DNA of 62,130 nt, the filler included, from Stramenopiles sp. TOSAG23-2 (lineage: Eukaryota): NCBI GenBank assembly GCA_900128395.1. It is 6 parts of 5 records of this genome, joined end to end, with 100 filler letters (N's around TTAATTAATTAA, not from the genome) between each part and the next. Parts side by side here need not be neighbours in the genome. Positions count along the whole stretch, not along the records: positions 13,879 to 27,649 come from LT649786.1; positions 27,750 to 41,516 come from LT649787.1; positions 41,617 to 55,375 come from LT649788.1; 3 more parts are not named here. The stretch is one strand, 5' to 3'. Under the pieces are notes generated by a model. It saw only the letters and a program-made list of their open reading frames with translations, ran no database searches and was not told where the DNA came from. Position 1 is the stretch's first letter. Each line of letters begins with the position of its first letter. A program made the position numbers and the translations under genes. Positions 14,471-55,375 of this stretch are shown piece after piece.

Positions 14471-15728
14471 ATGTTTCCTTTACGGTTCAAACCACACATT
14501 ACAAGGTATGCTAAACATATACAATATAGGAACTATCGTGGTCTCTTTTCAACAAATGCTTTTCCAGAGACACAGCGTGCAATAGTTATCAAAGAACATG
14601 GAGCTTCAGATGTTTTAACTTATGAAAAAAGATATGATACATCATCACTAAAAGACGTATCAAATAATGAAGTTATTGTAAAACATTCTTATGCCGGACT
14701 AAATTTTATTGATACATATTATCGCTCAGGCTTATACAAGCAGCCATTGCCATTCATTGCTGGGGGAGAGGCTGTCGGTGAGATTGTCCATGTTGGCGAA
14801 GAAGCAAAATTAGCTGGTGCTGCTGTTGGCATGAGAGTTGGGATGATGAATTTAGGTTCTTATTGTGAGTCGGTGAGATTGTCCATGTTGGCGAAGAAGC
14901 AAAATTAGCTGGTGCTGCTGTTGGCATGAGAGTTGGGATGATGAATTTAGGTTCTTATTGTGAATATAGTAAAGTAGACTTCAACCAGTGTATTCAAATT
15001 CCAGATAATATCAACGACGCAGTTGCACTTTCATCTATAATACAAGGGTTAACAGCACACTATCTAGTAGAAATAGCAGAAGGCTCTTGGTTGAAAAAAG
15101 GTGATTATTGCGTAGTTCATGCTGGTGCTGGTGGTACCGGATCTTTGTTAATACAAATTTTGAAGTTAAAAGGTCTCAAAGTCATTTCAACAAGTAGTGA
15201 AAAAAAAATTGAACTAGCAAAAAGTTATGGAGCCGATGTTGCAATTGAATACTCAAATTTGTGTGAAACGGTTGAAAATATTACAAGTGGTTTCGGAGTA
15301 AAAACAGTTTTTGACGGTGTAGGTAATAAAACAGCTAGCGATTCGCTCAGCGTATGTGCTTTACGTGGTTTGTGTATATATTTTGGCAATGCAAGTGGCG
15401 TACGTAAATTCTATTCCCCTAAACCTAAAAAGGATATACTCTCTAACGCATCACTCATTCGTACGCTATGCTCCACACACAGCCCGTCCCAGCAGTCGAT
15501 CCTTTGAAATTGGTGCCACGTTCCTTATTTATAACACGGCCAAAGCTTGGTGACTATATTAGCACAAAAGATGAATTACAACGTCGTGCAAACGATATAT
15601 TTAGCTGGATTGCTGATGGTTCATTGAATGTCAAGATAGACAAGACATTTGACTTGAAAGATGCAAAGATGGCTCATGATTATATTGAATCAGCCCAAAC
15701 AACGGGAAAGGTTATAATAAAGATTTAA
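14471..15728 (+). CDS. qor: NADPH:quinone oxidoreductase (zeta-crystallin/QOR, MDR family) with possible mitochondrial presequence; one intron; 95-nt duplication artefact
   Basis: GLNFIDTYYRSGLY, QGLTAHYL, HAGAGGTG, VFDGVG, spliced GNASG|PVPAVDPL, TTGKVII. The duplication at 14774-14963 causes the apparent frameshift. Confidence 0.9.
15400..15482 (+). mobile_element. 83-nt intron, Introner-like family member
   Basis: GTACGT...TCTCTAAC...CAG. Phase-0 removal restores the conserved GNASGPVP motif. About 79% identical by hand alignment to the intron at 50539. Confidence 0.85.
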
Positions 15729-16109
15729 TTTTTCTAATATGTCTGAACTTGTATGATATTAATAATACGAATATCATATGGTATGATTAAAGCAAAATAT
15801 TATATTGAATCAGCCCAAACAACGGGAAAGGTTATAATAAAGATTTAATTTTTCTAATATGTCTGAACTTGTATGATATTAATAATACGAATATCATATG
15901 GTATGATTAAAGCAAAATTACACTATGATATAAATGTTACGACGTAAAATGACCAAGGTCAGGTGTAATAATATCTCAAGACATTATCATATTTAAAAAT
16001 ACCGAGAAGTATGCATTAAATAAAATATTTAATGTTCTTTACACACACCAAATGAAAATTTAATTTCACGCACTAATAAATTGTACCACACAACGGATCT
16101 CTCACCTTT

Positions 16110-17185
16110 TTAATCACCCCATTTCAATGGTATCTTCCAACTACCTTCATTACTTAATGCCTCAATTGCGGTTTCATGTACACCATTACCTTCTCTATCG
16201 GGATGGAATAAAATTGTTACTGTTACAGCACCTGTCCATTTCAATGGTATCTTCCAACTACCTTCATTACTTAATGCCTCAATTGCGGTTTCATGTACAC
16301 CATTACCTTCTCTATCGGGATGGAATAAAATTGTTACTGTTACAGCACCTGTCTGTTTAGCATTCAATATCAAGGAATTCGGTTGAACTTTCACTCTAGG
16401 CCATTGATTTTTCGCTGGACCAAATGAAGATGATAACATATCAAAGTCTAAATTGTAACTTGTTTCATTGTCCGTAGTAGTAGCACTAGGTTTGGATTCA
16501 GAAAATACATCTAGTAAAATTTGTCCCAAACGTAAATGCATTGGTACATCTCCGATATTTTTAATTTCTAATGCTTGACTGGATCTTTTGCCTTTTTCTC
16601 GTTTCCCAAAATCTAGAAAGCTTGGATTAAATTTCAAACCCGGCACTCCACCAACTCCTGAAACTGACACCGTAATATATTTTCCAAGCGTTTCAATTAC
16701 AAAATCTCCACTAAATTGTTTTTTGATCTTTCCAATTTCAAAATTCACATCTACAATAACAGTTTCATCTTTATCTATAGTGCCGCTCATCGGTACAACT
16801 TCATAACCATTTGGAAGAGCTGGAATACTCCATTCAGTTCCACAATACCCAACATTTTGAATTGTCAAACTTTTTGTGTATATTTGCCCCACAGCACATA
16901 CTCCAAAGTCAATAATTCTTGGAGAAACTTGTAGTTTTGGATAGACACTGGTCCCTCTTATTTGAATTGTCAAACTTTTTGTGTATATTTGCCCCACAGC
17001 ACATACTCCAAAGTCAATAATTCTTGGAGAAACTTGTAGTTTTGGATAGACACTGGTCCCTCTTACTTCCAACTTAAACTTTCCTGCATTTGTATCTAGT
17101 ATGACATAGTTATTCTGCAAACGAACGAGGTTATGCGGTACCCATTTAAACTTTAACTCAGAGGACGTTTGACCGGCAATATTCT
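16110..17185 (-). CDS. Fragment of an ASH/MSP (PapD-like Ig-fold) repeat protein, Hydin/CFAP-like; 5' end missing or chimeric
   Basis: Repeated motifs IDFG..AVG...TKSLTIQNVG, LDFG..EKG..SQALEIKNIGDVP and V.P.SG.I. The frame opens mid-domain with no in-frame ATG. Contains two in-frame tandem duplications (105 and 117 nt). Confidence 0.65.
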
Positions 17186-17634
17186 TCCATGATGATTATA
17201 TATATACAAGATATAATAAAGTAGTATGTAAAGTCTTTCAGCTGCAAAAAGTGTCTGGTCTGGTCTATGTTATTTTAACAATTTATTTTTTGTTAAACGT
17301 TATCTGGTTCTATAAGATATGCTTCTTTGGTGTTTATCTTCAGAATACGGTGTGCACTGTATTTTCTTGATGATAAATGTTATACACTAATCACTTGTAC
17401 ATATGTACATATTCTGGACTATATGTATTTTTAAAATAAATCATAATAAAAATTAAAAAAATGAAAGATGTTATAACTGACGCGCAGCGCGCAGTGGAAT
17501 TCTACCGATAAGATTAAGGTTTTTATTATAATAAATTTTAAAAAACATACATCCTATACACACACACATCACATTCATTTTTACAAACATTGTGCGTGCG
17601 TGCGTGTAATTTGATACACATCACAGCCATCATT

Positions 17635-18363
17635 TTAATCACTTATATGTAATGGATCATATGTTGCAGCTCGTATTGCTGACATGTAATTAGCTGCTCC
17701 AACCATTGCACCACATACCATTCCCATTGGAAACGTATACAATCGTTCTTTGTGAATCAAAATATGATCCGATTCATTGTCTTCTAAACCTAAAAATGAA
17801 AACATAATTCCAAAATATGCACCACAAAACACGCAAGCAAATAAATTAATATAGATTTGATGTGTTGTACCAATAATTGGAGCAACATTTGAAACATTAC
17901 TACTACTTCGACGATCATAATAGACCCCAGTATTTTCCCCACCACTCCTATTACCATCTTTACTCGCTATACGTATAGCATAACAAAAATTTATCAGCTC
18001 AACCAAAGAAAAAACGATTGCAAAAGATAAAGCTACTGCTAAGCAAATATACATAGGTGTTTTTTCAGTCGGCCCTAGCTTCAACATCCATGATTTTTCC
18101 AGTATAAAACAAAAAGTACCAGACATTAATACCAACGTGCCCAAAGAGAGTACGACGCACCGCTGTGCGCTTGCACCCGGAGAACCATTCCATTGTTCAT
18201 GCTGTACCCTCCAAATCAATAAACTGCCCAATAATAGTAAAAACACACCTATCGCGTTTGCAAAAAATTCACTACTTGATATTTCCAATAACGATTGTGA
18301 GACACAAAATGCAGTTACAAATCCACATAATACACCGACAACAACTGCACTCAAACACGTCAT
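17635..18363 (-). CDS. Uncharacterised multi-pass membrane protein (about 6 TM)
   Basis: 242-aa ORF with about six hydrophobic helices. Confidence 0.75.
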   Translation of the reverse strand: MTCLSAVVVGVLCGFVTAFCVSQSLLEISSSEFFANAIGVFLLLLGSLLIWRVQHEQWNGSPGASAQRCVVLSLGTLVLMSGTFCFILEKSWMLKLGPTEKTPMYICLAVALSFAIVFSLVELINFCYAIRIASKDGNRSGGENTGVYYDRRSSSNVSNVAPIIGTTHQIYINLFACVFCGAYFGIMFSFLGLEDNESDHILIHKERLYTFPMGMVCGAMVGAANYMSAIRAATYDPLHISD

Positions 18364-18544
18364 ATGATGTATATATATATATGTCTATATTTTACACTAG
18401 ATATATATGCCTATATATGCCTATACGAATTTCTAAATTGCTCTACAATCTCTCCGTCTATTTGACCTATAATTCTCTATGTATTACGATGGATTTGGAT
18501 ATTACCTTTTTTTTATATATATAATATAATAATACATGGATAAG

Positions 18545-18571
18545 AATCACGAAACAGTTTGTTTCGTGATT
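18545..18571. terminator. Perfect 12-bp hairpin AATCACGAAACA-GTT-TGTTTCGTGATT about 160 nt downstream of the stop at 18732
   Basis: Exact inverted repeat; terminator role is inferred. Confidence 0.35.
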
Positions 18572-18731
18572 TGATACAAGGGGAATAGCATTAAGCAATA
18601 TTTAATAGGAAGTTTAAGTATGATATACACTATGATTATTTGATTATTTGAACAAAAATACGTCTAGTTAACGAAATATACCTCATAACCCTAATCCTAA
18701 CATGTGGACACAATCAAGTACCTCGGGACAA

Positions 18732-19400
18732 TTAAAGTACTTGTTGTTGACTCTCCTGATGTTCACGCTCATCCAAAAATACTTGGATCTGTGTTAACTT
18801 ATTTTTTGCTGCTCTTGGTAAACTTTTCCTACGTACGTTACTTGAACTGCCACTACTTTTTTTACGTTTGAGTTTACCAGTTGTACTACTTATCCCATTC
18901 TTGATTACGTAGTCATACATGGTATTGATTGTATTTGATAATTGGTCTATATCGTTTTTTAAAGATGGTGCCATCACAACATGCTTTCCCGCTTCCATAA
19001 TTTCTAACAGTTGCGACATGCTGGGATATTCTGGAATATTAGGTATAAATTTAGTAACAGAACTTAATACCTTAAACCACTTTGACCTACGTCCATGATT
19101 ATGTCGCTCCAAATCATGGCATGTTACTAGTCTAAGTGGTGGAAAACGCACCCGTTCTCCGTTTAAAACTGAACCATGTATATCAGATCGCTTTTTACCT
19201 CTTTTTTTTCTAACCTCTTCTAATAAATTTCTCATAAAACGCTTATCTTTAATTTGTCGATTCCAATTTCCAATTCTATTTACCGCGTTTTGTTTTTCTT
19301 TACGACGTGTTAACCTTGCTAATGGATCTGGTGGAAGCAATCCAAACCTCCCATTTCTTTGTGTATTTGTAGTTGCTGGGTTTTGTCCAATTCTATCCAT
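18732..19400 (-). CDS. Hypothetical basic protein (222 aa)
   Basis: ATG-initiated ORF flanked by AT-rich UTR-like sequence; no recognised domain. Confidence 0.65.
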   Translation of the reverse strand: MDRIGQNPATTNTQRNGRFGLLPPDPLARLTRRKEKQNAVNRIGNWNRQIKDKRFMRNLLEEVRKKRGKKRSDIHGSVLNGERVRFPPLRLVTCHDLERHNHGRRSKWFKVLSSVTKFIPNIPEYPSMSQLLEIMEAGKHVVMAPSLKNDIDQLSNTINTMYDYVIKNGISSTTGKLKRKKSSGSSSNVRRKSLPRAAKNKLTQIQVFLDEREHQESQQQVL

Positions 19401-19761
19401 GTTCGATTTGAATTTTTGTTAATTAATTTGTTAATAATATAAATATTGTGTGTGTGTATATGTTATATATGTAATGTATGTATTTGTTAGATTTACATTT
19501 GGTCATGTACCATGTATATATTTAGCATCACCATACTTAGTATATATTCATAACCTGGGCGGGATCTATTTTTACCACAAACAACAACATATGTGGCAAT
19601 ATGCTTCTATATTTATAAACGGATAATAATTGAAATGGATAACACCAAAAATAGCCCCAGAATGTACTAAGTATAGTCTAAATCCGGATAATGCCTATGA
19701 TCAACAAATTATAATAATAATTTAAAATTTAAATATACCTTAATCATCACCTATGCCTATG

Positions 19762-19792
19762 ATCTTCTCTCTGATATGATCAGAGAGAAGAT
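19762..19792. terminator. Perfect 14-bp hairpin ATCTTCTCTCTGAT-ATG-ATCAGAGAGAAGAT about 140 nt downstream of the EML stop
   Basis: Exact inverted repeat; terminator role is inferred. Confidence 0.35.
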
Positions 19793-19929
19793 ATGATACT
19801 GTAAATATTCGTACGAAGTAAAGCTTACGTTCGTAAAAAAATAATTATTTCAATTATGTTTTTTATAATAAAATAAATATTATTAATATTTTTAATTTTA
19901 AAAAAAATAATTTTTATATAAAATATTTT

Positions 19930-22900
19930 TTAACTCATCTTACTTAATCGCCATTGGAATACAGCACGATCATTACCACCGACAGAATATATCTTCATTT
20001 CCTCAACTTTTGCTTTTTGGCCCTTCAAGTGACTAAATCGTACGTTCATTACATGGGAAGAATGACCTTTACCAACAACAGGAGATGCCCCAGGAGTGGT
20101 ACATGGATAGTTGAATAAATTTATATGTCCATGATCATCTGCAGATACAATAATATTGCCTGTATTGGAGGTGCATACAGCATTTATATCATCACTTGCA
20201 GCTCCTTGTGGCCATATCCCTTCCGTACCCCATTCTAAAATACAAGTGTCACTTTGCCATTGAACATCACGTACTTCACGCAACTTCGTTATGTTTTTAA
20301 AAACACCTTTTTTGATGCTTTTTTTCAAATTATATCTTAATACTTCTTCGGATAAATCATTTGTACGTATAACAATTTTTTTTCCATCCGTACCAAAATC
20401 AAAATGTGTCACGGCGGAGGAACTTTTACTACAATAACCTTTGAACTTGAAAGTGCCATCATTATCCATTCGATACATCCAAACCTTTTGATCATGCGCT
20501 GCCAATCCGATAAATTTATTACTCGTATTTTTACTTTCATTGACTTTCACATCACTAATCCAATCTCTAGGCAAATGCTTTGCATCAAATTTATAACTAC
20601 TACTATTTGCTTCTATTATTTTATTTTTATTATTTTTCAAATCGAAAATATCAACTTCACCGGAATGATCTGCATCTTCCTCTTTCTTCTTCTTTCCTTT
20701 CTTACGCCTCTTTTTTCTTTTACCTGTAATGACTTTCCTACCAACTCGTCCACCAAGTCCAGCTATCAATACGTTGCCGTCAAACCATGCAATTGCTCTA
20801 GACATGTCTCTGCATTTACAAATATGCATCAATTCGACATGTCCAGATTCTGGGATACGTTGCCATACACGGACTGTTTTATCATCACCAGCAGTCGCGA
20901 ATATGGTTGGATCCTCCGGATTCACCGCTAAGCCCCAAAGCTCATCAGCATAATGTCCTGCGACAATCAAATCCCACGTTAAATTATTTGCTTTTTCTTC
21001 ATAGTCAGCTATGTAAATTTCACTTGATTTTGTTCCAACTAGAATTTTGTTTAAAGGAATATCAATGCAAATACTCCTAATTTCAGGATCAAAGGATTCA
21101 AACGTTTGACCTTTAATGGACATGCTAGTACTTGAAAATACCCATTTCTTCTCCATAGCTTGGTTAATATCATCGAAGTCACTTGCTACTGTCACAACGT
21201 AAATTTTACCAGTTTTCGTGCCACAAACAATTGTGTTTACACCTTCACTTATATCCTCCTCGTAGCAAGGCGCAATTGCTGTTATTGCACCACCATCCTG
21301 CTTCGCCATGTTTTCTAAAAAGGTACCTTCCCACTTTCCAAGCGATTTCTTATCTTTTGGATTTGCAGTGTTCCAGATGTTGATCCACCCACCAGCACTG
21401 CCGCTAATAAAACGGTGACCTTTAATTTTTTTATCTTTGTGTCTCGTGCCAACATACGTACCGCATATTTGCGTATTTAATTTTTTCTTTCCAGAACCTA
21501 ATTTACTTTTCAAGGAACGACCAGAAAGTGCCCAAAAACGAATATGTCTTACACCACCTGACACGAAAAGAGTGCCTGAATCAGCAGGGGTGAAAGCAGC
21601 CCAAAGTACTGGGCTTTTATCCCCACGCGCCGTTGTAAGCAATGTTCCATCTTCCCACGTGCCACTATTGGTTTCCCACAACGCTACACTATGATCATTA
21701 TCATTTCCAATTGATAATACCTTTTTACCATCTGGATGGAATGCGATACACGTCACCGCACGTTTGTGAAAACCACCCAACGTGCATATTTCACGACATG
21801 AATCAGCATCCCAAATTTTGACAGCAGGTAATACTTTTCGTTCATGCTCCGATTGCATTTGGCCAGTCGCAACAAATTTTCCTGTCGGATCAGTAGTAAG
21901 GCAGACGATATCATCGTCGTGACCCTTAAAGTACCTTTGACGACTATTTTTATGATGATGACTTGTACCATCCAAGTGCTCTACCACACCAATTGCCGCC
22001 GTGTGGTATATAATATCGCCAGATGAGGAGAAACGAAGATTATTTCTAGAGTTTGGATCTTGCGCTTGGTAACCACAAACGTATTCGAGTTCCAAATTGA
22101 AACGAGGTTTCGTCGGAGCACCGGCTCTAGAAGCATCAGGGTCGGAAGGAGCTACCAGTTGCCCTTTCCATGGTTTGACTGCCATGGATTGATCACCTTC
22201 ATCGTCACCAACATCAGCAAATGGATCTGAAAAATCTTCTTCATCGTGTACAACTTCCTCCCTACTGCTACTACTGCTTTTACCCTCAGAACTCGCCTGT
22301 CCAGACATTTCATGTAACGGATTGATATTTTTCCATTGAAATACACAGCGATCATTACCACCTGTTGATATGACATATCTATCTTCATTCATCCATCGAA
22401 CATTGGTTACGTGGGAAGAATGCCCAGTTTCCTGTCCATACGATGCACCAGGCTCTATGCATGGATATCTAAACATTTTCAATTTTCCAAAATCATCCGC
22501 CGTTATAATAACATTTTTGTTACTTTCTAAATCGACGGCATTAATATCAGTCCCATCAGCACACTTGGGCCAGATACCTTGTACTGGCCAACCTAGGATA
22601 CATGTAAATGTATCCCATTGCACATCCCTCATTGCGCCCGCACTCGTTTGCCTACGCCCACGTTTCACATCCCAAAACAGCAATTCATACGCACCGCAAT
22701 TACTTTGCAACCATTTTCCATCGACTGAAAAATCCATATGTGTTAGGTAACTGTTATGTCCTTTTAACTTGTGCTTCAACTCGACAATGGAGCCTCTTCT
22801 AGAATTACTATCCAATTTTGCTTCTTTAGTATTCAAAGACGTTTCATATATATAAATATTGCGATCATGCGACCCGACAGCAAGATAGCCTTTATAATTT

Positions 22901-25900
22901 CCGTCTTGTCCTGACGATGATGAAAATTTCATATCACTAATCCACCCCTTTGCATCGCGCAAAGGCTTACTTTGCTTACTTATATCTCCAATTACAGGTA
23001 TTAATTTTTGTTGATTTTGATTGGCATCGTCTACCAGATCAGCGCGGTAAACAAACACCACAACTTTCCCGTCATGCTTTGTTTTACCTCTTCCTACGTT
23101 TCCACCAAGTCCTACTGCTAATAAGCGTGGCACATCTATATTACCAGGCGACACGGCACAACTTCTAGCCATCACTGGATCTTTCAACCCAAGGCTGTTT
23201 AAACGAAAATTTTCAATTTGTTTTTCCTCTTTAAAATTCCACAGGCGAATATACCCATCATCTCCACTGGTAAAGTACATGTTGCTATCTTTTGCCTTAT
23301 CTATGGTTAGCCCCCATACTTCATCTTTGAAATGACCGCGAGTTATGATCTGCATTTCTCCTTCCTGTACTTTTCCAAGTTCGATGTTGATGCCAAATTC
23401 AACAATTTCTGATCCCCGCGTACCGACTAGCACTTTCGTACAAGCTTTATTAAGACATACAGATCGAATTTGTGGATTCGCTTTTTCAACCGGAATGACC
23501 TTATTAGGCACTTTCTTTTTCCCTTTCTTTTTCCCCGGAACTTTGTATGAAGTCTTCATCACATTCCACCCATTGTACTTAAATCCCTTTTCTAAATCCT
23601 TCCAATCATTGTTAATAATAACCTTTTCCTCCAATATGGGAGTACCTTTATCGAATTTGAAGACCTTAACAATACCTTTCACACAACCAGTGACGACAGC
23701 ATTATTTTCGTAGTTGGCATATATAGAATTAATAGGTCCATGAGCATTATCTCCTTTACCGTCACCACCTTTTTGTTTAAGCACTTCAACCTTTCCTGGT
23801 TTCTTGTTTGATTCATCAAAAAGAATTTGATAAATATTTCCCGACGCACCGCCAATAAGCATGTATTTATTCACTGGCGAGAGAGATAAACACGTATCTA
23901 GTCCCACACCTTTACCAAAAGGAACTTTCTTTGAAGCCAAATTTCGACCATTCATAGTCCACACACGCACATGATTAACACCACATTGCACTATAGTCAA
24001 GTTTGATTTAAATTTTCCATACACAAACTCAAGGGCAAAAACTTTGTTTTTATCCCCTTTAGCATTTGCAACCATATTTCCTTTCTTGTAGTTATAGATA
24101 CAAATACTGTGATTTTCGTCCTGCCCTATCGATGCTAAATAGCATTGATCAGAAAAGTCTTCACCACGTGAAAATGCAATTAAAGATACTTCGCGTTTAT
24201 GAAAGCCAGACAATACTTTTTCTGTTTTGCATGTGTTATTCCACACGACAATTTTAGGTTTTTTTCCAACTTCACCAGTTGCTATGTATTCACCACATTG
24301 TGACACAGCAAGGCAAGTAATATCATCCGTGTGATCTTGATTATAGATTTGCCGGGTAGTACGCTTACTATCACTATTATTTTTATCGACACGAATTCCT
24401 AAAGCTGCTGCATGATAGACAATAGATTCAGAATCTTTCGAATCTTCAGATTTAGCATATCGGACATTGTCCCGTGTATCGAAAGATCGGTATCCATGAA
24501 CTTTGACTAAATCCAAATCGGATTCTGGCGCTGTTTTGTTAGATGGAGGCGTTTTGGACGGCGCTTTAATCGCACCAAGCCATGGTTTAACAGCCATAAA
24601 TTCGTCACCACCTCCTGAGCCGAAATCAAACGCATCTGTTGTTTCATCTTGCTTTTCATCTGTTTTTTGATTGGAATCATGATCTTCATGCTCAGAATCT
24701 TCATCTGGATCATGATGATGATCTTGATGTTCACTATCATCATGTGGGTCATATCGCCATTGAAAGATCGAACGGTCCTCTCCACCTGTTGAAATCAAAC
24801 GGGTTGATCCTCTCATCGTCCCCTTGAACTTTTCAATATCGTGTTCAATGTTATTAGCAAACCGTATATTTGTAACATGCGATGAATGGCCACGATATTC
24901 CATCCCAGCTGCTTTTTCACCAGTACATGGTGAATTAAAAAGTTTCACTTTGCCAAAATCATCAGCAGTAGCTATTATCCCACTGTATATATTCGTTCTT
25001 CGCCCTCCTTTACTAAAATCAGGTAATATGTCTACTGCATTAATATCTGTCCCGTCAGAACCAGGTGGCCAGATTCCTTGTACAGGCCATCCAAGAGTAC
25101 AAGTAAATGTATCCCAGCAAACATTTGCCACAGATGGAGCGGATTTAATTTGCTTTCCACTTTTGGCATCCCAGAATAAAAGCTCATACGAGCCATCATT
25201 GCTTTGTAAAACACTGCCATCGACGGAAAAATCTAAATGAGAAACGTAACTGCTGATGCCTTTACATTTCGCCCTGTATTCATATGTCTTAGAGTTATAT
25301 AAATATATACTTCGGTCATGGGCACCCACGGCTAGGGTGCCATTAGAAGAGTATTTCACGTCACTAATCCAATCTTTTGGATGTGGTTTTAACTTTTTGA
25401 ACTCAGATAATGTATAGAAACCATCTTCTTTTAATTCAAAGTTGAAAATGATTACTTCACCATCATGTTTTGATTTTGTTCCAACAACTCTGGTTCCTAC
25501 GCGCCCACCTAGACCAACAGCCATTTTTTCACCATCCCGTGACCAGTCAAGGGCACGACTAAATGCATCAAGTTGCTCTGAGATAGCAATTAATCTTGGC
25601 CTGTGCTTTTTTTTATGATGCTCCCCGTTCTTTCCCGCATATCCAATATTCCAAACGCGAACTCGGTTATCATCCCCAGATGTTGCGTAAATGGGTTTGC
25701 GTGATTTCATTGGCGATGACTTTCCAGTTGCTGGGTAAATTGATAAACCCCAAAGTTCAGCTCCATTTCTTGAACCACCCGTTGAATGTCCTTGCATTAT
25801 GCACCGTATGCTTTTTTCTTGAATGTCTTTGTCCTTGACTTGAACTTCATAAATTTCCGAACCTTTCGTGCCAAATATCATCTTAAACTCCCCGTCGTTA

Positions 25901-27649: not shown

Positions 27650-27749
27650 NNNNNNNNNNNNNNNNNNNNNNNNNNNNNNNNNNNNNNNNNNNNTTAATTA
27701 ATTAANNNNNNNNNNNNNNNNNNNNNNNNNNNNNNNNNNNNNNNNNNNN
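27650..27749. other. Artificial scaffold spacer
   Basis: N run containing TTAATTAATTAA. Confidence 0.95.
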
Positions 27750-28297
27750 CATGTGGCTACGTTTTTTGTTTTTCGATTTTTTCCCGCATAAATCCGTAAA
27801 ACGTGAAAAACTAGCACATTTTTGCCATGCTTTACTTTTTTTGGCAAATGTGTCCCTCAGACGTAAAATTTGATGGTCGTACCACATAATTTCATATAAA
27901 ACACTATTATTGTTGTATGTTGTGAGTTAATGTTAGTTCATATTTCAAATATACATACTTAGTGAACATATTAATGAAGTTTAAACGCACAGATATCATT
28001 TTTTCATAATTTTTTGTGTAAAACATGTGTGTCGTACACACTTCCATGAAGCATTTCAAACGACTTTGAAGGGCTAAAACAATGAGAAATAAAGTGTAAT
28101 TATATAGTGAATTTTTACCTTAACTTAGCACTGACACAGCAGTGGATATTTTTACATTGACTCTTAGCTCAGCGCTCTCAATAATAAAAAAAATTATATG
28201 ATATCTTACAGCTTTTAAATATAAAAATATTTTTATATAAAAATGTACACAACGAAAAAATCATTATATTTATACAAGATATATGTACACATTTTTA

Positions 28298-29137: not shown

Positions 29138-29493
29138 TTTTTTTATCTTTTATTAACTAATGTATGTACAATTTTTCAATAATATTACATGTATTATTGT
29201 CAAGGCATATATACAAATAATCAAAAAAAAAGTATATAGGATAAATTGTGATCAATATAACCTTTTGCTTTCTTCCTTTTTTTTTATCTTTTTAAATATA
29301 TACAATGTTATTTTGTTTGCTGGCCTCTTGCACATTGTGCCATTCACACTTTTTATTAATTATTATTTTTCTATTTTTTCTGTGATTTTTGTTGGTAATA
29401 AAAAATGCAGCAGCAGCAGTTAGACAAAAAGCTTGTGTGCAGTGTCATTTCATACTTGTATTGTATACTAAAGACTAGGTTGATTCTATCAAA

Positions 29494-29967: not shown

Positions 29968-30396
29968 AGTTCAGTATTCAATTTAAAATTGTTCTAGTAG
30001 TCGTCTATATAATATATAAAACGTAAAACTTCTGTATTGTTCTGCTATTGCCTGGCTGAGGCCTGGCGGCTGGCCTGGATTGCCAGATTGCTATTCCGAA
30101 AAATAAAAAAAAATTAAAAAAATGGGTAGGTGGAAAAAAAGCATTAAAAAAAAAGGCACAAAAAGCATTTTTTATATTTGATCAAAGAATTTTATTAAAA
30201 ATTTTTATAAAAAACATATATATTAATGGAAAATTAATACTTTTGGTAAGGATAACAAAGAAGTATTATATTTTTTACATTTTTTAGTACATTATTTTTT
30301 ATTTAAAATACTAAAGAAGAATCCTTCTTGCTTTTTGTTTAAGTGTATAGACATACAGAGAGATAAATAGATAGATCTTATCTTGTCATTCAAACC

Positions 30397-41213: not shown

Positions 41214-41516
41214 TATCTCACGTGCGAATCTATTGTCCTTTCGTCTAAGTTTTTCTATTTATTTAATTCTATATGTATGCTGATCGCAAGGGGTAATAAA
41301 CGATAGGTAGAATGACACTCTATGGTATAATATGTCTTTCTATACTATCTCAACTTTGTTATTAGATTTTTCTTTTTCGATTTTGTTTTTAAACTCTTTT
41401 TTCTTCTGGCCACTTCTGGCCACTTTGCCAGGAGGTGGTTTGCACTTTGCTGTGGTTTGCCTAGCCTAGCAAATTTGCGGAATTTGAGATTAGAGATTTA
41501 ACCTTTTAGTCCCTGC

Positions 41517-41616
41517 NNNNNNNNNNNNNNNNNNNNNNNNNNNNNNNNNNNNNNNNNNNNTTAATTAATTAANNNNNNNNNNNNNNNNNNNNNNNNNNNN
41601 NNNNNNNNNNNNNNNN
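41517..41616. other. Artificial scaffold spacer
   Basis: N run containing TTAATTAATTAA. Confidence 0.95.
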
Positions 41617-41874
41617 AAGTTTTGCGTAGGATGCACTAAATTTAACACACATTTAACACACAGGACTATGGTTATGAACGGGCTTTAATGACGACTAATA
41701 ATAATTAAATAATTAATTAAAATATTATCGATCGATTATCGATTATTAAAAAAATAAATGAAAACAGAAAAGAAACATTATTTTCTTTAACTTATACATC
41801 CAAACAGTTTCATTATTCAAACAAACCAACTGAAAAGAAAAGAATAAAAAGAGGAAATATTATTCAATTTAAAC

Positions 41875-42784
41875 ATGTCGGGTATATTCCCAAAAACAAA
41901 AAAAAATAGTAAAATAAAAGCATTAGTAGAACATGCATTATTACCTTTTGCACATTTAAACCAAGGTAATACAGGACAAGAACAAAATAATCTTAATAAT
42001 ACCAACAACAACAACAACAGCAACGATTCCTCTTCCTCGTCATCGTCATCGACTTCGCGTCAAACAATTCCAAATCCACCGTATACATTGCAAACAAATA
42101 AATTTCAAGCACAAATATGTCCAAATTTTTTCATTGCTCAAGATCTTTGTTTTGGACATTTAAATGATACACATTTTAAAATATGTTTTTGTATTACGTC
42201 AAAATGTCGTAAAGAATTATTTGGAGTAGATGCAAATGATAATAATAATAATAATACAAGGGAAAATGATTTCTTCGCAAAATTCAAACAACGACTAAAC
42301 AATAAAACATTGCAACTTTGTGCATACAAATTATTAATGTGGACCGAGCCTCAAATAAAATATATTGAAGCTACGTATAACAATGCAGCACCACATATAT
42401 TAATAAATGTATATGATTCTCCTTTTTATATTCAAATCGATAGTGCTGTTATTTATAACGAAATGGGTAATACTTTATTTGGTAATCCACAACCTTTGCG
42501 ACATATTCAATTAATCAAAACTTTACTTGATACTGGTATGTATTATTACATAAGAAATATTTATTTGCTTCAACAAGCTGATTCTACGTCATATCATATT
42601 GAAATTATCGATGATGATAATAATGATAATAATAAAAATGGAGGCACAACAAGTAACAATAATAACAATTTAAACAACGTCATAGATTACAATGATATTG
42701 ATACACAAAGTAGTGGTAATAATATAAATACTACAGTCAATAGTAGTAGTATTAGTAATAGTAGCAATGATGATCCGATAATCG

Positions 42785-42823
<39 letters not shown>

Positions 42824-45800
42824 GTAGCAATAGTCAACAATTTGAAGATGAAGACGAGGAAGAGGATGATGGTGATTTTAGTGATGTCATTGATGATGGT
42901 AATGCAATTCCAGAAATTAATGCTACTACGCCATTAGAAAATACAATGACAGATGAAGAACAAGATCAAATTAGTGATAATGAAAATTCATATCGTATTC
43001 TTTCTTCAAATTCTAAAAGAAAAAAATCTACTGGAAGAAATAGACAAACAAATTTGATCGAAAGAGGAGAAAATCCTGTCCGAAAACGTGTGATGTTTGC
43101 AGCTACACAACAATCACAAATATTTGAAGATGACGACGAGGAAGACGAGGAGGAGAATGATGATGATAATAACGAGAATCATCAAGCTGATGGAAACCAT
43201 ATTTCTAATTCCGACAAAGATAAAAATATTGATAATCAATCAAATATATCTATAGAATCAACAAATGATGTCAACAATATAAATAATGCAATAAATGATC
43301 CTGCAACAATTCCTACCACGGATGATGATAACAACAACAACAACAACAACAACAACAATAATACATTAGGGAAAGAACACCTCGCAGAAGTAGAAAATGT
43401 ATTTAGCAATGATAACAATGATGATAATATTGATGGGAGCGGTGGTAATAATGCAATTTCGACAGCAACAACAACTACAACCACCACCACCACCACTACA
43501 ACTATTAATAGCAGCAGCAGTAGCAATATTAATAATAATCAAACGAATCATCGCGATGCTAATACAAACGATCAAACAGAAGTAGAAGAAAATATAAGCC
43601 AAGAAACTCCAGATGAAACATTAGTTGTCGACGATGATAACGAGGATGATGATAAAGATGATGCTATTACTGATGATATTTTGCAAAAAGCGATTGTGTC
43701 ATATCTAGACAAACACGATGGTGCGGATGATAGAAATACTGTTCCTGTATTGAAATTTCTTGAAGATCAATTCAATACGCGCTTTTCATCTTCTCAACGA
43801 AAATTTATTGAAAATGAAGTAGATGAACTAACCTATAACGAATTTTATTTTGTAACAGTAAATTCAACTGATGTGTGTGATGTTGGTGTTGGTGGCCTTG
43901 GTATAGAAATTGAACGTATAATTAAAAATAATAAATCGTATATTAGAATCCATGAAATAATACCAAATGGGTTTGCAGATATAAATGGTCATTTAAAAAT
44001 AGGCGATATGATTTTAGAATTGGAAATACATTTGACATATAATAACAAAGTTGTTTCTTTTATAGATAAAAAACTTGAGGTGTGTAAAAAGTTGCTAAGA
44101 ACCAAGAAGCGGCCAATTGTTTTGTCAATGCGTAAACGTACAGAAAATTTTGTGGACGATGATCAAGGTTACGATGTTGTAGTGCCTAGTGGTGGTGGAC
44201 AAAAATTCAAACTTGGGATGTCTATTTTTGATGGTGACAGTTTTGAAGGAATGGAAGTTACCGCTATTAAACCTGGTTCATTTATTGATGAAGAGGGTAC
44301 TGTTGGACTTGGTGATTACCTTATGGGAGTTGTTGGCTCAAACGGTAAATTTAAAAGGCTTTCCTATGATGAAGTTGTTCATATGAATTTAAGAAAACGA
44401 CCGTTTGTGTTGAGATTTAAAAGAACCAAAACGCCCGTAAATGATGAAACATATATGCAAGAAGACGAAGACGAGGAGGAGGAAGAAGGAGAAGAGGAGA
44501 TCAATAATAATAATAATACTTCAAGTCCTAGCCCCAAAAGAAAAATACAAAATATAAATGATTTGCGACTTGAGGCATTTAGTTATTTGCCTAATAAACT
44601 TGGTATGGAAGCAATATGTGATAAATTAAAAGCAAAAAATTATGTTGGTTTTGAGTACTATCATTATGGTGTGTTTTCAAGACAACCGGGAATTTATGGC
44701 AAAATTTTACCTGATGGTATGATTGAAAATAAAAATGGGTCGCCACTGGCTGTTGCTACATGGATTAAGGAAAATTACCCTGTAGGGGGGCATACCATGA
44801 AAAAGTTCGACTATAAAAAATGTTTTATTGTAGATGTCGATGGTAAAAAACTTGCAAATAAATTAGATTTATATGCATTTAGAAAAGGTGTAGACGTAAC
44901 ATTTAATAAAAATGTTGAAGAAGTGGAGGAGGGAGAAAAAGAGCAAGAACAGGAGAAAGAAGTGGAAGAGGGAGAAAAAGAGCAAGAACAGGAGAAAGAA
45001 GTGGAGGGAGGAGAAGTAGGAGAAGCAACTGATGACAATAATAATGGCAGTAATGCGCCAATAAGTTCTTCTTCTACTTCTACAAAGAAAATGTTAACTG
45101 TTCGTGATTTTTCGGTCGGTGATCTTGGTGCTGTGAAATTAGGTTATGATGAAGTATGTGATAAATTAGGAGCGAAACGTTATATTGGATTAATGGGGAA
45201 GAGATCTTTAGACTCTGAATCATATTATTATGGTAAACTTTTGCATATTGGATTAATGGAAAGTGATGACGGGGCTATTCCTGTTGGTACTTGGCTTAAA
45301 GAGACGTTTCCTAACCGCCCTCCCACGAGATTTAACTATAAATGTTGCTTCATTGTAGACGTTGATGGTAGAAAACTTCCAAATAAATCGGATTTTTATG
45401 CATTTAGGAGAGGCAAAAAATTAAGAGCTGGTGAAGAAAGTGATCGAAGAGAAGAAGAAGAAGGAAGCGAAGAAGAGGAACGCGAAGAAGAAGAAGAAGA
45501 AGAAAGCGAAGAAGGCACCACGAACAATAACAGCAGTGATACTTCTAGCACATCTTCCGCGAGCAAAATATTAACGATTGATGATACTCCAGTTAAATCC
45601 TTTGGCACAGTTAGAATCGGATATCATGAAATATGCAATAAATTAGGAGCAGAACGCTACGTTGGATTTATATGCAAAAGGTTTGTTGATTCTAAAACAT
45701 ATCAATATGGTAAATTGTTACCAAATGGATTAATTGAAGATGGTGATGAACCTTTGCGTGTTGGTAATTGGATCTGTATGCATTCCGCAGAGGTAAAAAA

Positions 45801-48452
45801 GTCACATCTAATGAAGAAAGTAAAGAAGCGGAAGAAAGCGACGAGGAGGAAGAGGAAGAAAGCGACGAAGAGGAAGAGGAAGAAGAAGGCGCAATGAACA
45901 GTAACAACAGCTCAAGCACATCTTCTACGGGAGAAATTTTAACATATGATGATGTTTCTAAGGAATCGTTAGGCTCAAATAAACTTGATATGGATGAAAT
46001 ATGTAATAAATTAGGAGCAAAACGCTTCGTTGGATTTATGTGTAAGAGGTTTGTTGATTCTAAAACGTATCATTATGGTAAACTGCTACTAAGTGGATTA
46101 GTTGAAGATGATGATGGGACTTTTGGTGTCAATAATTGGCTGGGAAAAATGTATCCAAGTTGGAAAGCGCCTAGATCTTCTAGAACGTTTCACTATAAAT
46201 GTTGCTTCATTGTAGATGTTGATGGTAAAAAGCTTCCAAATAAATTGGATCTTTTTGCATTTCGGAAAGGAAAAAACATAACACCTAATGAAGAAAGTGA
46301 TAAAGAAGATGAGGATGATGATGAAAATGTTGATGATACGTTAGTGGAACAAGAGACAAATGATAAAAAAGTAGTAAATTCTTTGCAAAACAATAAAGAC
46401 GATGCAGATGGTAAACATGATGAATATTTAAACCAATTCAATGATGATGATGACGATGATGATGAGAATGATGGCAATACTGTGATGGGGCAAAACAAAT
46501 ATAAAAACAATAATCACAAAAATAGCGATATTGAATTGGAAGAAGACGAGGAAGAAAGCATTCAACAAAATATGTATCAACAAAGGCAATATTCTCAACA
46601 ATCACAAGTTCCGTATGTTCAAGAAGATGAATCTGTAATGCCGATGCCTAAAAATGGCAACAAAGGTAGTAATGAAGAACGAAATAGTGACAAAATTAAT
46701 GCAAGTAATGCTATGGATAATCACGAGGAGGAGAAATCATCTGAACCTATCGAGACAAATAATGATGGCGATGAAGAGGAGAACGATGAGAATGACAGCG
46801 AAGAGGAAGAGGAAGACGGTGTCCATAAAGAAACACGGAAGCAAAAAGCGGTACGGAATCTAGGCTATTTAAAAAGAACAGGGAAATATTTATATCATGT
46901 AACTGGAAGGTGGTATAGCATTAAAATCATGGAATATTCAAAAACGGAACAGCTACATACGGTGCAATACCGCGACGGGGGGACACAGAAATTGAATATT
47001 GATTTATGTCTACGTGAAAAAACATTTTATTTTACGGATAAAAATCAAGATTCACAAAAAAAAAACAAAAATTCGAATAGTACTGCAGTAAGAGCCAGTA
47101 TTAGTGCAAGTAACCCACCTTATAGTGAAGATGAACAAGAAGGACAAAAGCACCAAGTCACAGCATCTGAGAAAGTTGTATCAGTTGATCTGACCAATGA
47201 AGCACTAGAAGAAGCAAAGGAAGATTCAAATAGAAATACAAAGAAAAGGAAAAGAAAAAGAAAAGACAAAACGGTAGATAAAAACATAAAGGCGACAGCA
47301 ACAACAACTACTACTACTACTACTACGACAAATAACAACAATAATGCTTTTTTAAAAAACTTTCCTTCTGAATATTGGGAAACTATAAAAGAAAAATTAA
47401 GAGCTTTGTTTGAAAAATATCACACCTTTGAAAAACCTTTAACTATGAAAGAAATTATCAATGCACTATCTAAAACGTTGAAAGTATCGTTCGATGAAAG
47501 TGAGCAAAATCGTGTGAAAAATATGTATTATGATTTAGTCCGAGAAAAGGAAAACTTAAGAATAAAAACTAAATTTTTGAACAAATTTGAAAATGATGAT
47601 GATGAACATGTCTATCATATTTTATATGGTACAATTTGGTACATGCCAAAGGTGGATATTCAAACATTAAAATGGAATGAAATGTGGGAGGATGTTACAG
47701 ACCATGAAATGTTTTCATCCCCGCGTTTTATTGCGTTTAAAGAAAAACATGGAAGAACATTCATATCGCCGCTAAAAAGAAATAATAAGAAGAAAGGCAA
47801 GAAACTGAATACCTCAAAGAAAAAACAATCTTCTAAAAAGCGAAGAAAAAACAACTTAAACAGTGACACAAGTAAAACTCGTAGTGAACAAGGTGATCTT
47901 GGGTCATCATCAAAGAAGAAAAGAAAAGCCCCTAGTAGATCAGCTGCAAACATAAGTAGTAATAACAACAACAGCAGCGGCAGCAGTAGTAAACGGACAC
48001 GTTTTGCAGGGACAAACAACAATGGTTATAATGAGGAATATATTGAAAAGGAAATAGTGTTTGGACCAAATGTACAAAGGTTGGGTTTTTATGTAGATCA
48101 AGTGCGTATAGGAAATAAAGACATGATGGCTGTCAGTGGAATAAATCCTCGTGGATATGCGGCTCAAAATACCAATATTAAAGTTGGAGATATTTTCGTA
48201 CATTGCCGAAATCACAGATTTGAAGCAAATTTTTTGGATCTTGATGATATAGAAGAAGTAAAAAAACGGATGGCAACAAAAATACGTCCAGTCAGCTTTA
48301 CTATAAGACGGAAAAGGAGACGACAGGAACAACGTAGTAGAAGTAATAATACAAATTCTAGGCAAACGCCTATAAAACGTGAATTGACATCGCCATCTAA
48401 TAGAAATGGCGGTTCTAGTAGGAGTAATAGAAATGCACAAGCTTTGTTATAA
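41875..48452 (+). CDS. Large (~2200 aa) multidomain protein: putative N-terminal OB-fold, DEK-C-like x2, PDZ x3, four ~100-aa repeats, Tudor-like; frameshifted by a ~100-nt deletion at 45766-45772
   Basis: PDZ motifs GLGIEI..IIPNGFA...LKIGD, KLGMSI..IKPGS...GLGD and RLGFYV..INPRGYAA...KVGD. The two ORFs share a repeat unit that is cut at AATTGG. Confidence 0.75.
44545..46275 (+). repeat. Four coding repeats (ICDKLGAKRYVGF...YGKLL..G..E...W.....YKCCFIVDVDGKKLPNKLDLYAFR) separated by acidic linkers
   Basis: Directly visible in the translation; the third copy lacks its central part. Confidence 0.9.
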
Positions 48453-48568
48453 TTCTGGACGTTACCTGCACGGTGTTTGTGGAGCGAAGCGTAATGTCAA
48501 GTGTTAGTATGTATGGATCAATGACATAATATATACATACATGCACATAACGAATTATTAAATCTATC

Positions 48569-51511
48569 ATGGCTTCATTGGTACAACAATCAGGTACTAC
48601 CATTTTCGACCTACCGTCTGTTATATATACCACAAAAATTTTAACATGTTTACCACCATCTGATATTTTCAATATGTTCCTAATTAGCAAACAAATCAAT
48701 AATGAGCTATTTGATGATAATTTATTAAAAATGGAATATCAAATACAATTTCAAACCTTTTTTGAAGCTTTAAATATAACTTTCAATGAGGAAACATTGC
48801 CACTGTTTTTGAGAAAAATTAATTTTCTTCAAAAAATATATGAAAATTTAATCAATTATCGCAAAACTATATTTAAACGTAAGGCAGAAGTATTTTTAGT
48901 TGATAATTGTTCTACAATATTTCAAGCTAAAAATATAAATGATTATATGGGTATACAAAAAGTTAACCAATCATCATGGTCTTTTGGGGGGAAAAAAATA
49001 TTTCATGTCGCTGGACATCAATTCAATCCATTAAATTGCATTGTATTAAACGATGGATCTCTTTTTATCAGAGAACCAAAGCGCATAGTTCACCCAATGC
49101 CAAAGTTTTTTTATGGTATAACACTGAAATCTTCAGTCTCTAAAATTAGTGTTGGCTGTAAGCATACTGTTTGTAACACTTTAAATGGCATGGGATTTGT
49201 TTGGGGTGAAAATACGGAAGGGAAATTAGGTTTAGGTGAAAGTGCTACGGGTTATGTATCAAAACCTACTCTATTGAATATTAAAGAATTTCAATTTGAA
49301 TCTACGTTCTTTGTAACTTGTTCAGCTGGGGAATCGCACACATGCCTTGTTGATACAAATGGTATTGTATATGCAAGTGGATATGGTGAAGGAGGTAGAC
49401 TGGGCAATAATACATGTCGTAATCAGAATATGTTTCAGAAAATGTCTTTTCGAACTAGAAATTGTTTTTCATTATCACATGATGAGACAAAACTATTTTC
49501 TACACGTACTACTCCAAAAATAATTACAGTTGAATGTGGAAGAAGTTGGACATTACTCATTGCTTCTGATGGTATACCATATGGAACTGGACAAAATCGT
49601 AATTTACAAATGGGCTATTCATTTGGGAAAGAAAAAGAATTATTATCTGGACAACGAATTAATTGGGTAAGTAAATTTTATCCCCCTAAATATGATAAAA
49701 AGGACACCTTCTCTAACACTTCATCACTCATTTATACGCTATGCTACACAGTCATCTCCAAAAGCTATTTTATTTACTAATGAACATAATAAAGAATTCA
49801 CAAATGGTATGAAAAATATTTTTATAAAATGTAAATTCGTGAGAGCAGGCTATCTTCAAAATGCGTCTTACTTCATAGACTATGATAATGTATTATACGC
49901 AACGCCACATTATAAAACCACATTATACAAAAAAGGTATCAATGAAACATTATGGAATAAGTTAAATATAAGAACAAAATATGATGAAATATTAGATGCA
50001 GATGTTGATTCATGTGTTTTAAAGTTTCTGGTAAATAATAAAAACGGCCCAAGTAGCTATTACTATTATGACTTATGGAAAAACAAACGTGTTACGACAG
50101 AGAAAATTTTGGAAGATAGAAAGGTAGATTTTAAAAAACATTTATATATTGATCCCACAAGAACAAAAAAAACATTATCAGCTAGTAAATCAGTAAATGT
50201 ACACAATAAGAACAAAAATATCGTAACTTTAAAGATGATGAATATCATATCAAATGAAAATATTACATTTGATAATATAAATCCAAACACTGTGCTAAAA
50301 ACGATAGATACAATGAAAGATTCCAAAAAAATAATGGCACTTCCTGAAAGTAAATCATATCATCCAAATTTAACTGCATATGTATTAGACAATGTTTTTT
50401 GTGAAGAGACATGCAAGAAAATTGACCAATTACGAAATAAAATTGAATTAGATTTAAAAAGGCCAACATGCGCACGCAGATTTTTTAAAGAATGGATTGG
50501 CACACAAACGCAACAAACACGACACTCTGAAAATGGATGTAAGTAAATTTTATTCCCATAAACCTGATAAAAAGGACACCCTCTCTAACGCATCATTCAT
50601 TTATATGCTACGCTCCACAGGGGTTGGTCAAGCGTTGATTGGCACACAAACGCAACAAACACGACACTCTGAAAATGGATGTAAGTAAATTTTATTCCCA
50701 TAAACCTGATAAAAAGGACACCCTCTCTAACGCATCATTCATTTATATGCTACGCTCCACAGGGGTTGGTCAAGCGTTTGAGGCAATGTTTAAATCATTA
50801 AAGTTACCGTTTCATACCATGCCATGGTTTCGATACTTAGAATATGCAGAAGGGGGATGCATGGCAAAACATAGTGACGGAAGCAATACACACATTGTGA
50901 ATAATACTTTAATTCGATCAACACATACGCTTTTATATTATTTGAATGATTGTGAAGATGGTGGTGAGACAACATTATTCAAAAAAAAAATATCAAAGAA
51001 GAAAGGGGGATGCATGGCAAAACATAGTGACGGAAGCAATACACACATTGTGAATAATACTTTAATTCGATCAACACATACGCTCTTATATTATTTGAAT
51101 GATTGTGAAGATGGTGGTGAGACAACATTATTCAAAAAAAAAATATCAAAGAAGAATAAGAAGAAAAAGAAGAAGAAAAAAAAGACAAAACATGTGGATG
51201 ATAATCTGAGTAATGCTTTTATTAATAAAATGAATATTCAAGATAATAATAAAGATGAAGAGGATGAAGATGATTATGAAAAAAGCATATTAGATGTGGT
51301 AAAGGCAAAACGAAATAGATTGCTAATCTTTCCCCATAGTTGTGAACATGAAGGAAATCTAGTTGGGAATGATGCTAAAATTGCTCTTCGGGCAGAAATC
51401 TATATGTATGGAGAGCAATATGGTTGCAAGAACGCGAATAATATTTCATGGTATGAAACAACAGATTATGTTGAATATAAGAACATGATGCAACAAGGAT
51501 TGAAAAAATGA
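48569..51511 (+). CDS. F-box-like + RCC1 repeats + C-terminal P4H-like 2OG-Fe(II) oxygenase (two introns; duplicated segments)
   Basis: IFDLPSVIYTTKILTCLPPSDI (F-box-like). RCC1 motifs SVGCKHT, WGENTEGKLGLG, SAGESHT, GYGEGGRLG, ECGRSWT. Oxygenase motifs FRYLEY..G..M.KHSDG, YYLNDCEDGGET, HEG, K.ALR. Spliced junctions RINW|SSPK and ENGW|VGQA are in frame. Confidence 0.8.
49667..49751 (+). mobile_element. 85-nt intron, Introner-like family member
   Basis: GTAAGT...TCTCTAAC...CACAG; phase 0. About 85% identical by hand alignment to 50539-50620. Confidence 0.85.
50539..50620 (+). mobile_element. 82-nt intron, Introner-like family member (also present at 50681-50762 inside a 142-nt duplication artefact)
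   Basis: GTAAGT...TCTCTAAC...CACAG; phase 1 (T|GG = Trp). Confidence 0.85.
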
Positions 51512-55256: not shown

Positions 55257-55375
55257 TATGTACCCAAACGTATTAAAAAAAATTTGTTTAAATATAAATT
55301 CGATATTTTCAAAATTAAATAATATATCTCAAATTATAAATCATTTCTCAGATGACAAATAATACAAATATATCA

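Follow-up and report, generated by a model that had tools for sequence, protein, structure and literature searches.

Introners are the best-documented route to the rapid gain of many introns, and in 2016 Huff et al. reportedly described DNA-transposon Introners in the marine picoeukaryotes Micromonas and Aureococcus which create introns on insertion into exons. Here we analysed a 62,130-base stretch of DNA (hereafter the window) from assembly GCA_900128395.1, deposited as Stramenopiles sp. TOSAG23-2, in which three introns of 82–85 nt share one sequence. Together with related copies in metagenome contigs, these introns almost certainly constitute a genuine Introner family, and we lean towards an RNA-mediated route for its spread. 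Both Introners in general and their enrichment in marine protists were known before, and the family adds a case rather than a concept.

Among the closest described systems are the introner elements (IEs) of the green alga Micromonas pusilla, for which the relevant sections of Simmons et al. 2015 (PMC4540971) list repeated families of introns at non-homologous sites, a pattern of presence and absence indicating gain, and no encoded protein. The window family has these three features. Reverse splicing was proposed for the Micromonas IEs because their copies always lie on the coding strand (PMC4540971). The two systems differ in their host, which for the window family is probably a stramenopile, in the likeness of their copies (32 identical IE3 members in Micromonas, compared with 92.5% identity for our closest pair) and in structure, a stem-loop having been predicted by the authors for the Micromonas IEs and none being predicted here (PMC4540971); they are likened by description, not by sequence. 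Fungal introner-like elements (ILEs), as outlined in parts of PMC3609843, are likewise short non-coding intron units which multiply and then degenerate towards ordinary introns, and the 64- and 68-nt derivatives of the window family, together with a doubtful copy at 7275–7179, fit a decay of this kind. However, ILEs are longer than regular introns, whereas the copies of the window family measure 64–92 nt beside other introns of 86, 110 and 151 nt (a small sample), and ILEs are by prediction stably folded, whereas the window family is unstructured (PMC3609843).

A 2022 survey defined an Introner family as at least four introns whose similarity extends almost to both splice boundaries (Gozashti et al. 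2022, PMC9860276). In its sections on family properties, median lengths run from 30 to 654 nt, a range which includes the 82 nt of the window family, families with neither target-site duplications (TSDs) nor terminal inverted repeats (TIRs) are reported, and aquatic unicellular hosts are over-represented. The window family groups with these TSD-less and TIR-less families, from which, as they are presented there, it does not differ in kind. In TSD-derived Introners one splice site is recruited from the TSD (PMC9860276), whereas the repeated unit of the window family contains both splice sites and is flanked by no TSD. The survey screened 520 Tara Oceans eukaryotic genomes, and the window family may already be listed in its tables. 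A 2025 survey includes a Parmales family described as spreading ‘via an unknown mechanism’ (PMC12130899). In the main texts of the literature, supplements excluded, we found nothing linking introners with MAST-4, and for introners and heterotrophic stramenopiles only an Amoebophrya paper.

Family introns of the window

The first of the three introns lies at 15400–15482 (+ strand, 83 nt, phase 0, GTACGT...CACACACAG) in a quinone oxidoreductase (QOR) gene with a coding sequence (CDS) at about 14471–15728 (Pfam ADH_zinc_N), where the exon junction reads ...YFGNASG|PVPAVDPLK. The second, at 49667–49751 (+, 85 nt, phase 0), lies in an RCC1 region with the junction ...GQRINW|SSPKAILF, and the third, at 50539–50620 (+, 82 nt, phase 1), in an oxygenase region with the junction ...HSENG|WVGQA. 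These coordinates, lengths and phases are as given by the initial annotation of the window, and excision restores the frame as it had claimed, all three junctions reading through. Its description of unrelated flanking exons on different scaffolds held for the QOR copy, which lies elsewhere, but not for the other two, which share one contig (41617–55375) and one gene. Intron 50539 starts 872 bases downstream of intron 49667, and the spliced open reading frames (ORFs) 48551–49780, 49671–50546 and 50639–51511 give one RCC1 + 2OG-Fe(II) oxygenase protein (CDS about 48569–51511); in the homologues P0042 and P0043 the RCC1 and oxygenase domains also lie in a single chain.

By BLASTN within the window, introns 49667 and 50539 were 84.7% identical over 85 columns (E 1e-12) and introns 15400 and 50539 were 83.1% identical over 77 (E 6e-8), while introns 15400 and 49667 aligned in two blocks, with 89.7% identity over 29 and 90% over 20. 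The similarity of the three, first proposed from a hand alignment, was thus borne out at 83–85% over the BLAST-aligned parts. An nhmmer profile built from the three sequences matched only these copies at E ≤ 1e-22 across the window, with the next match at E 0.089; a minus-strand match of the family 3′ end at 48494–48478 was not significant (E 6.8).

Further copies in metagenome contigs

Metagenome contigs were scanned with a degenerate pattern spanning the donor, the interior and the branch site, which yielded 17 loci (117 kb); these loci form a biased sample as they were chosen for containing a copy with an intact donor. The family was present in 15 of the 17 scanned loci, and the other two (L010 and L011) were rejected as chance or unrelated matches and excluded from all counts. 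L001, L004 and L017 represent the window’s own loci, L002/L008 and L005/L009 each represent one locus twice, and an inverted second copy in L015 was counted once. A 13-member nhmmer profile gave 23 matches at E ≤ 1.4e-8 in the 179 kb made up by the window and the 17 loci, adding second copies in L003 and L007. After merging, 15 distinct close copies remained, comprising the window’s three and 12 new insertion sites. The copies are 64–92 nt long (median 82), with a mean pairwise identity of 76% (range 60–92.5%), and they conform to the operational definition of an Introner family, being more than four similar introns at non-homologous sites with similarity reaching near both splice boundaries. 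The proposal of an Introner family in the initial annotation, made from three copies, is upheld by this larger set.

The family pattern had no matches in viral contigs (IMG/VR; two patterns) and none in 596 Gb of prokaryote genome contigs (one pattern), in scans which need exact matches and would miss diverged copies; the 15 family matches are therefore not due to chance. On the same exact-match scans, a viral vector and contamination by prokaryote sequence were both rejected.

As a rough density, the window holds three close copies in ~60 kb, and the selected loci hold two copies beyond the triggering ones (L003 and L007) in ~76 kb of non-redundant sequence, window repeats excluded. Extrapolated from this small and biased sample, and for orientation only, a genome of tens of Mb might carry from several hundred up to a few thousand copies. 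Within the pattern-selected loci, family copies were the only introns which clearly joined ORFs, a result to be read in the light of how these loci were chosen.

Two observations were made on the side. An intron-like segment at L010 785–845, on another AT-rich contig, has the family’s first 13 bases (GTAAGTAAATTCT) and its branch motif ATCTCTAAC; the interior of the segment is unrelated, and it may represent a different family or a much decayed copy. In L015 the same intron occurs at 3146–3233 (−) and 8656–8743 (+) with identical flanks and in inverted orientation on one metagenome contig, probably reflecting either a palindromic artefact of assembly or a duplication in inverted form.

Sequence and structure of the repeated unit

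The family consensus is GTAAGTAAATTCTATTCCCCTAAACCTnATAAAAAGGACATCCTCTCTAACACATCACTCATTCATACGCTACGCTCCACAG. Of the copies, 12 open with a GTAAGT donor and 3 with GTACGT, within an extended donor GTAAGTAAAT, the strong branch site TCTCTAAC lies ~30 nt before the acceptor, and the acceptor is mostly CCACAG. Two subfamilies are distinguished by linked differences, CCT-AAAAAGGATAT versus CCTGATAAAAAGGACAC, and intron 15400–15482 belongs to the former. Deletion derivatives comprise two 68-nt copies ending early at CATTCAG, both in L003, and one internally deleted 64-nt copy in L007, which has CCTCTAAC at the branch site. The composition of the sense strand differs from that of its surroundings, with 10% G and 28% C in the introns compared with 24% G and 15% C in the flanks.

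The interior blocks CCCCTAAACC and AAAAAGGA are conserved beyond the needs of the splice signals, as would be expected if copies of common origin had been kept alike by a function of the intron RNA, for example as a small RNA or as a splicing or regulatory element. We consider this very improbable. RNAalifold found 0 consensus pairs among the 15 copies, five family copies folded with minimum free energies of −2.8 to −4.1 kcal/mol (z 0.17–1.18 relative to shuffles), indicating no stable structure, and there was no Rfam match at E ≤ 1 in 49600–50700. The 64- and 68-nt deletion derivatives are still in place, population indels occur in intron 49667, and a function of this kind would still require the unit to have been copied to 15 non-homologous sites.

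The alternative that the introns converged under strong constraint on their splice signals, in a genome whose short introns are stereotyped, may be tested against the window’s other introns. We counted seven distinct ORF-joining introns, the same number as the initial annotation: the three of the family, one doubtful member in a Kelch-repeat gene and three outside the family. The last are at 58147–58062 (−, 86 nt, phase 1, GTATGT..TACTAAC..TAG), which recurs at 56193–56108 in a near-identical contig, at 52389–52239 (−, 151 nt, phase 1, spliced in RNA) and at 52957–52848 (−, 110 nt, phase 2, GTAAGTACAT..TCTCTAACC..GAAG). The intron at 52957–52848 does resemble the family in its GTAAGTA donor and CTCTAAC-type branch site, as convergence would predict, but the profile did not match it, and none of the three gave a profile match at E < 1. 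Moreover, identity among family members extends over the whole 80 nt, including positions outside the splice signals, and the subfamilies are defined by shared indels. Convergence is accordingly a highly improbable source of the similarity, and common descent of the copies within an Introner family is the reading we retain.

The doubtful member lies at 7275–7179 (−, 97 nt, phase 2; Pfam Kelch) and has the blocks GTAAGTAAA, ATCCC.CTAAAT, TTCTAAC, CATTCAT and TATGCTACA in common with the family. Its nhmmer E values of 0.089 and 0.13 are not significant alone, and its blocks make a degenerate family member possible but doubtful. Where three or four family introns had been claimed for the window, three therefore stand and the fourth matches weakly.

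Splicing in environmental RNA

Evidence for splicing from RNA and protein covers 3 of the 15 copies, directly for intron 50539 and for the QOR intron (through protein P0164) and indirectly for intron 49667. Four runs, including the RNA runs X15, X17 and X18 and the DNA run X4, were aligned to the contig at 41617–55375, the parts left uncovered giving no evidence either way. RNA contigs from two studies join 50538 to 50763 at GT..AG, with a shorter side of 147 letters without mismatches in X15 and of 90 letters in X17. The 224 bases skipped equal 142 bases of an artefactual duplication plus the 82 bases of one intron. This joint is not among the joints listed for the DNA run X4, in which contig record 26 spans 50702–51003 including 61 intron bases. 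For intron 49667, the alignment of RNA contigs from two studies (X15 record 5 and X18 record 15) breaks off at precisely 49751, with 23 and 18 letters unaligned beyond it; a break at this position fits a spliced transcript because the preceding exon and the intron both end in G. The non-family intron at 52389–52239 is also spliced, X18 record 18 aligning on 51963–52238 and 52390–52699, while the RNA contigs gave no clear sign of splicing at 52957–52848.

At the QOR gene, the same-species protein P0164 reads ...YFGNASGPVPAVDPLK..., which equals the predicted junction GNASG|PVPAVD. This protein of 359 residues comes from a contig of 1,299 bases and clusters at 90% with the genomic read-through forms, and its size suggests that it derives from a transcript. 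The prediction that these segments are spliced out was in this way supported both by the 50538–50763 joint and by P0164.

It should be noted that the window contains perfect tandem duplications which are artefactual, one of which doubles intron 50539. A second exact copy of this intron lies at 50681–50762 (+), within a perfect 142-bp ×2 duplication at 50495–50778 (TRF, 100% match). Because this duplication is absent from the independent metagenome contig L001 and from the RNA contigs, the copy is an artefact of this assembly and not a separate insertion. The same weakness might be suspected of the family as a whole, as an artefact of assembly, amplification or contamination in the source assembly, yet this has a negligible probability: independent metagenome assemblies (L001, L004 and L017, 99.4–100% identical) and a 2024 DNA run carry the same introns at the same sites, the introns are removed in RNA, and twelve further sites lie on other contigs.

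Presence, absence and gain

Proteins predicted from same-species genomic contigs read into the introns (P0001, P0165 and P0170 for QOR, and also P0041, P0181 and P0184), and population indel variants occur inside intron 49667 (P0041, P0184 and P0181). One form of this intron is 87 nt long, in frame and free of stop codons, so that gene callers read through it and add 29 residues.

Absence in relatives was examined at the three window sites, in relatives with 53–76% protein identity. The QOR homologues P0002 (76%), P0003 and P0004 (67%; P0004 lies on a 10.8-kb contig) read GNASGPVPP unbroken, the RCC1-oxygenase homologue P0042 (53%; contig of 12.5 kb) shows no interruption at either the 49667 or the 50539 site, and P0043 is continuous across the 50539 site. 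Positions shared with distant relatives, as expected of ancient introns, were sought and not seen, these relatives lacking all three window introns. From the similarity of the copies we infer that the pattern reflects gain rather than loss in the relatives. The initial annotation had gone further and proposed a recent burst of gain in an otherwise intron-poor genome; gain at the window sites stands, but both ‘burst’ and ‘intron-poor’ are overstated on a basis of ~180 kb.

The sequence of 45400–55375 is also present in small DNA runs, in marine or seawater metagenomes from several studies and in six marine metatranscriptomes, which marks its source as an uncultured or environmental protist of the sea. 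As the host is widespread in ocean sequence data, the gain, polymorphism and decay of introns could be studied in it without culture.

Insertion sites and orientation

Similarity stops at the GT and the AG, as had been noted from the window’s three copies. Taken over stretches of 20 bases, mean pairwise identity among the 15 copies is 0.27 in the exon just before the intron, 0.81 at the start of the intron, 0.60 at its end and 0.26 in the exon just after it, and no exon-side consensus was found at the 15 insertion sites. At 16 sites (the 15 copies and the Kelch intron) there is no TSD of fixed length, the exon–exon repeats measuring 0, 0, 0, 0, 0, 0, 0, 0, 1, 1, 1, 1, 2, 2, 3 and 4 bases, and the intron ends take part in no flanking repeat. 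Inspection of the consensus showed no complementarity between the 5′ end GTAAGTAAAT and the 3′ end GCTCCACAG, and this reading of no TIR is supported by the absence of consensus pairs, the weak folds and the G-poor strand. The claim that no clear TSD or TIR is visible, made for the window, is confirmed across these sites.

All 15 copies lie in sense orientation in coding sequence with GT..AG ends, and their excision restores an ORF, the shorter ORF flank being 22–758 codons (the value of 22 stems from an artefactual duplication). Phases 0, 1 and 2 are represented by 6, 3 and 6 copies. The expectation that further copies would be found in the sense orientation of genes held for all 12 new sites. 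The copies occupy at least 11 host-gene loci, 8 of which carry different Pfam annotations. The hosts are unrelated: in the flanking ORFs Pfam recognised QOR, RCC1 + 2OG oxygenase, a dynamin-like GTPase with PDZ, a methyltransferase, D-lactate dehydrogenase, an ion channel of the cyclic-nucleotide-gated type and two sulfatase paralogues, and several have no family match. No copy was found in the ~21–23% of the 179 kb which lies outside ORFs of at least 120 codons, none was antisense, and there were no orphan termini and no longer element with the same termini.

Three genes (in the window, L003 and L007) carry two copies each, 340–870 bases apart. Both copies in L003 are of the rare 68-nt 3′-truncated form despite unrelated flanks, and a segmental duplication was rejected as the source of this pair because the outer flanks do not match.

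In the two sulfatase paralogues, the introns at L006 1820–1911 and L012 1713–1634 lie five codons apart around the GKWHLG motif, one after the W and the other before MVGKW; they represent either nearby independent insertions or an insertion-prone spot.

Mode of spread

The family is a self-contained unit of ~82 nt with its own donor, branch site and acceptor, and copies of it have entered many unrelated coding exons in a single uncultured marine protist. If the family spreads through RNA, the spliceosome would insert the excised intron by reverse splicing, either into a transcript or into the single-stranded DNA of a gene under transcription, with copying into the genome as the next step. Whatever the route, because the unit brings its own splice sites and branch point, it is removed precisely from any exon and tolerated in all three phases. 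We favour this route because the ends are exactly GT..AG with no TSD, TIR or target motif, because sense-only copies are confined to coding sequence and occur in pairs within genes, and because of the lack of a fold, the strand-asymmetric composition and the rare truncated form shared by the L003 pair.

The main competing explanation is that the family was spread by a non-autonomous DNA transposon whose TSD is absent or hidden, or which was mobilised in trans from an autonomous element at another genomic site, with selection removing antisense and non-spliced copies. Subfamilies and deletion derivatives, both seen here, are typical of transposon families. This explanation would nevertheless have to account for the lack of a TSD, of a terminal inverted repeat or self-complementarity and of an insertion-site motif, for 0 of 15 copies being antisense or outside coding sequence though about one-fifth of the sampled DNA is outside long ORFs, and for the lack of orphan termini or longer elements in that DNA. 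We regard DNA transposition as a serious, though less likely, alternative.

Several points weigh against an RNA-mediated Introner family. We know of no Introner for which reverse splicing followed by fixation in DNA has been demonstrated. The search was confined to 179 kb, of which 117 kb had been selected for carrying a copy, and an absence of intergenic and antisense copies is also what is expected after DNA insertion with strong selection in a compact genome. For intron 49667 the RNA contigs display the acceptor break and not the junction itself, and the source of P0164 could be a DNA allele lacking the intron instead of RNA; it is to be noted that a transcript and an intron-less allele would both support the Introner reading. 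The 2022 survey, in its sections on mechanism, concluded that DNA transposition fits most Introner families, with TSDs in 49 of 130 families and TIRs in 72 of 177 (PMC9860276), and DNA elements without TSDs exist (PMC9860276, PMC12130899), such TSD-less classes as helitrons and cryptons being named among introners in parts of the 2025 survey (PMC12130899).

With these points set against the features listed above, the balance tips gently towards spread by an RNA-mediated route, and we give the joint reading, of a real Introner family which spread by such a route, the same guarded preference. A more specific version, in which a minimal, unstructured, RNA-propagated Introner of 82 nt with no TSD, TIR or protein re-inserts preferentially into its source transcript or gene (compare the three genes with two copies each, one pair being of the rare truncated form) and is the source of over half of the introns of an abundant, intron-poor host, is tentative and rather unlikely to hold in full. 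The family exemplifies a class without transposon hallmarks, being very short, with its own splice signals, exact ends, sense-only copies and splicing in environmental RNA. If the RNA-propagated reading is true, the frequency of the host in ocean metagenomes and metatranscriptomes would allow insertion polymorphisms, and intermediates in lariat or circular form, to be traced in natural populations.

Composition of the window and assembly artefacts

The window consists of six contigs, at 1–13778, 13879–27649, 27750–41516, 41617–55375, 55476–57324 and 57425–62130, joined by N44-TTAATTAATTAA-N44 linkers at 13779–13878, 27650–27749, 41517–41616, 55376–55475 and 57325–57424. Because these are separate contigs joined together, distances and claims of a shared scaffold across the linker points are meaningless. 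The window has ~32% G+C, and its ORFs are long and mostly unbroken, for example that of an EML-like protein of 2,572 codons. Pfam domains include flagellar/ciliary-type and other eukaryotic domains (HYDIN/CFAP Ig-like, EML beta-propellers, SET + SDG2_C, Kelch and RCC1). The best named relatives of the EML protein are from oomycetes (33–37% identity), followed by other stramenopiles, while unnamed environmental proteins reach 56–58%; judged from this one protein, the host is probably a stramenopile.

We found nine perfect or near-perfect two-copy tandem duplications of 72–153 bp each, at 2207–2364, 14774–14963, 15679–15918, 16119–16353, 16856–17065, 29766–29932, 50495–50778, 50850–51156 and 51490–51632. 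Some break reading frames, as in QOR (95 bp ×2) and a kinase (77 bp ×2.1). The metagenome contigs L001, L004 and L017 lack six of the seven which they overlap (those starting at 14774, 15679, 16119, 16856, 50495 and 50850) and retain the one at 51490, those at 2207 and 29766 being outside the overlap. RNA contigs skip two of them (50495–50778 and 50850–51156), and the QOR region is single-copy in same-species proteins. The duplications look like artefacts of assembly or amplification.

The contig at 55476–57324 is 99.8% identical over all its 1,849 bases to 57430–59278, at the start of the sixth contig, and it could be redundant, represent a second haplotype or stem from a recent duplication. 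At 41848–45897 and 45768–48452 (+), two ORFs, of 1,349 and 894 codons, share 130 bases but are in different frames, within a GAA/GAG-rich low-complexity region where the reads are noisy; a frameshift, an intron that went unrecognised or an error of assembly could account for the overlap.

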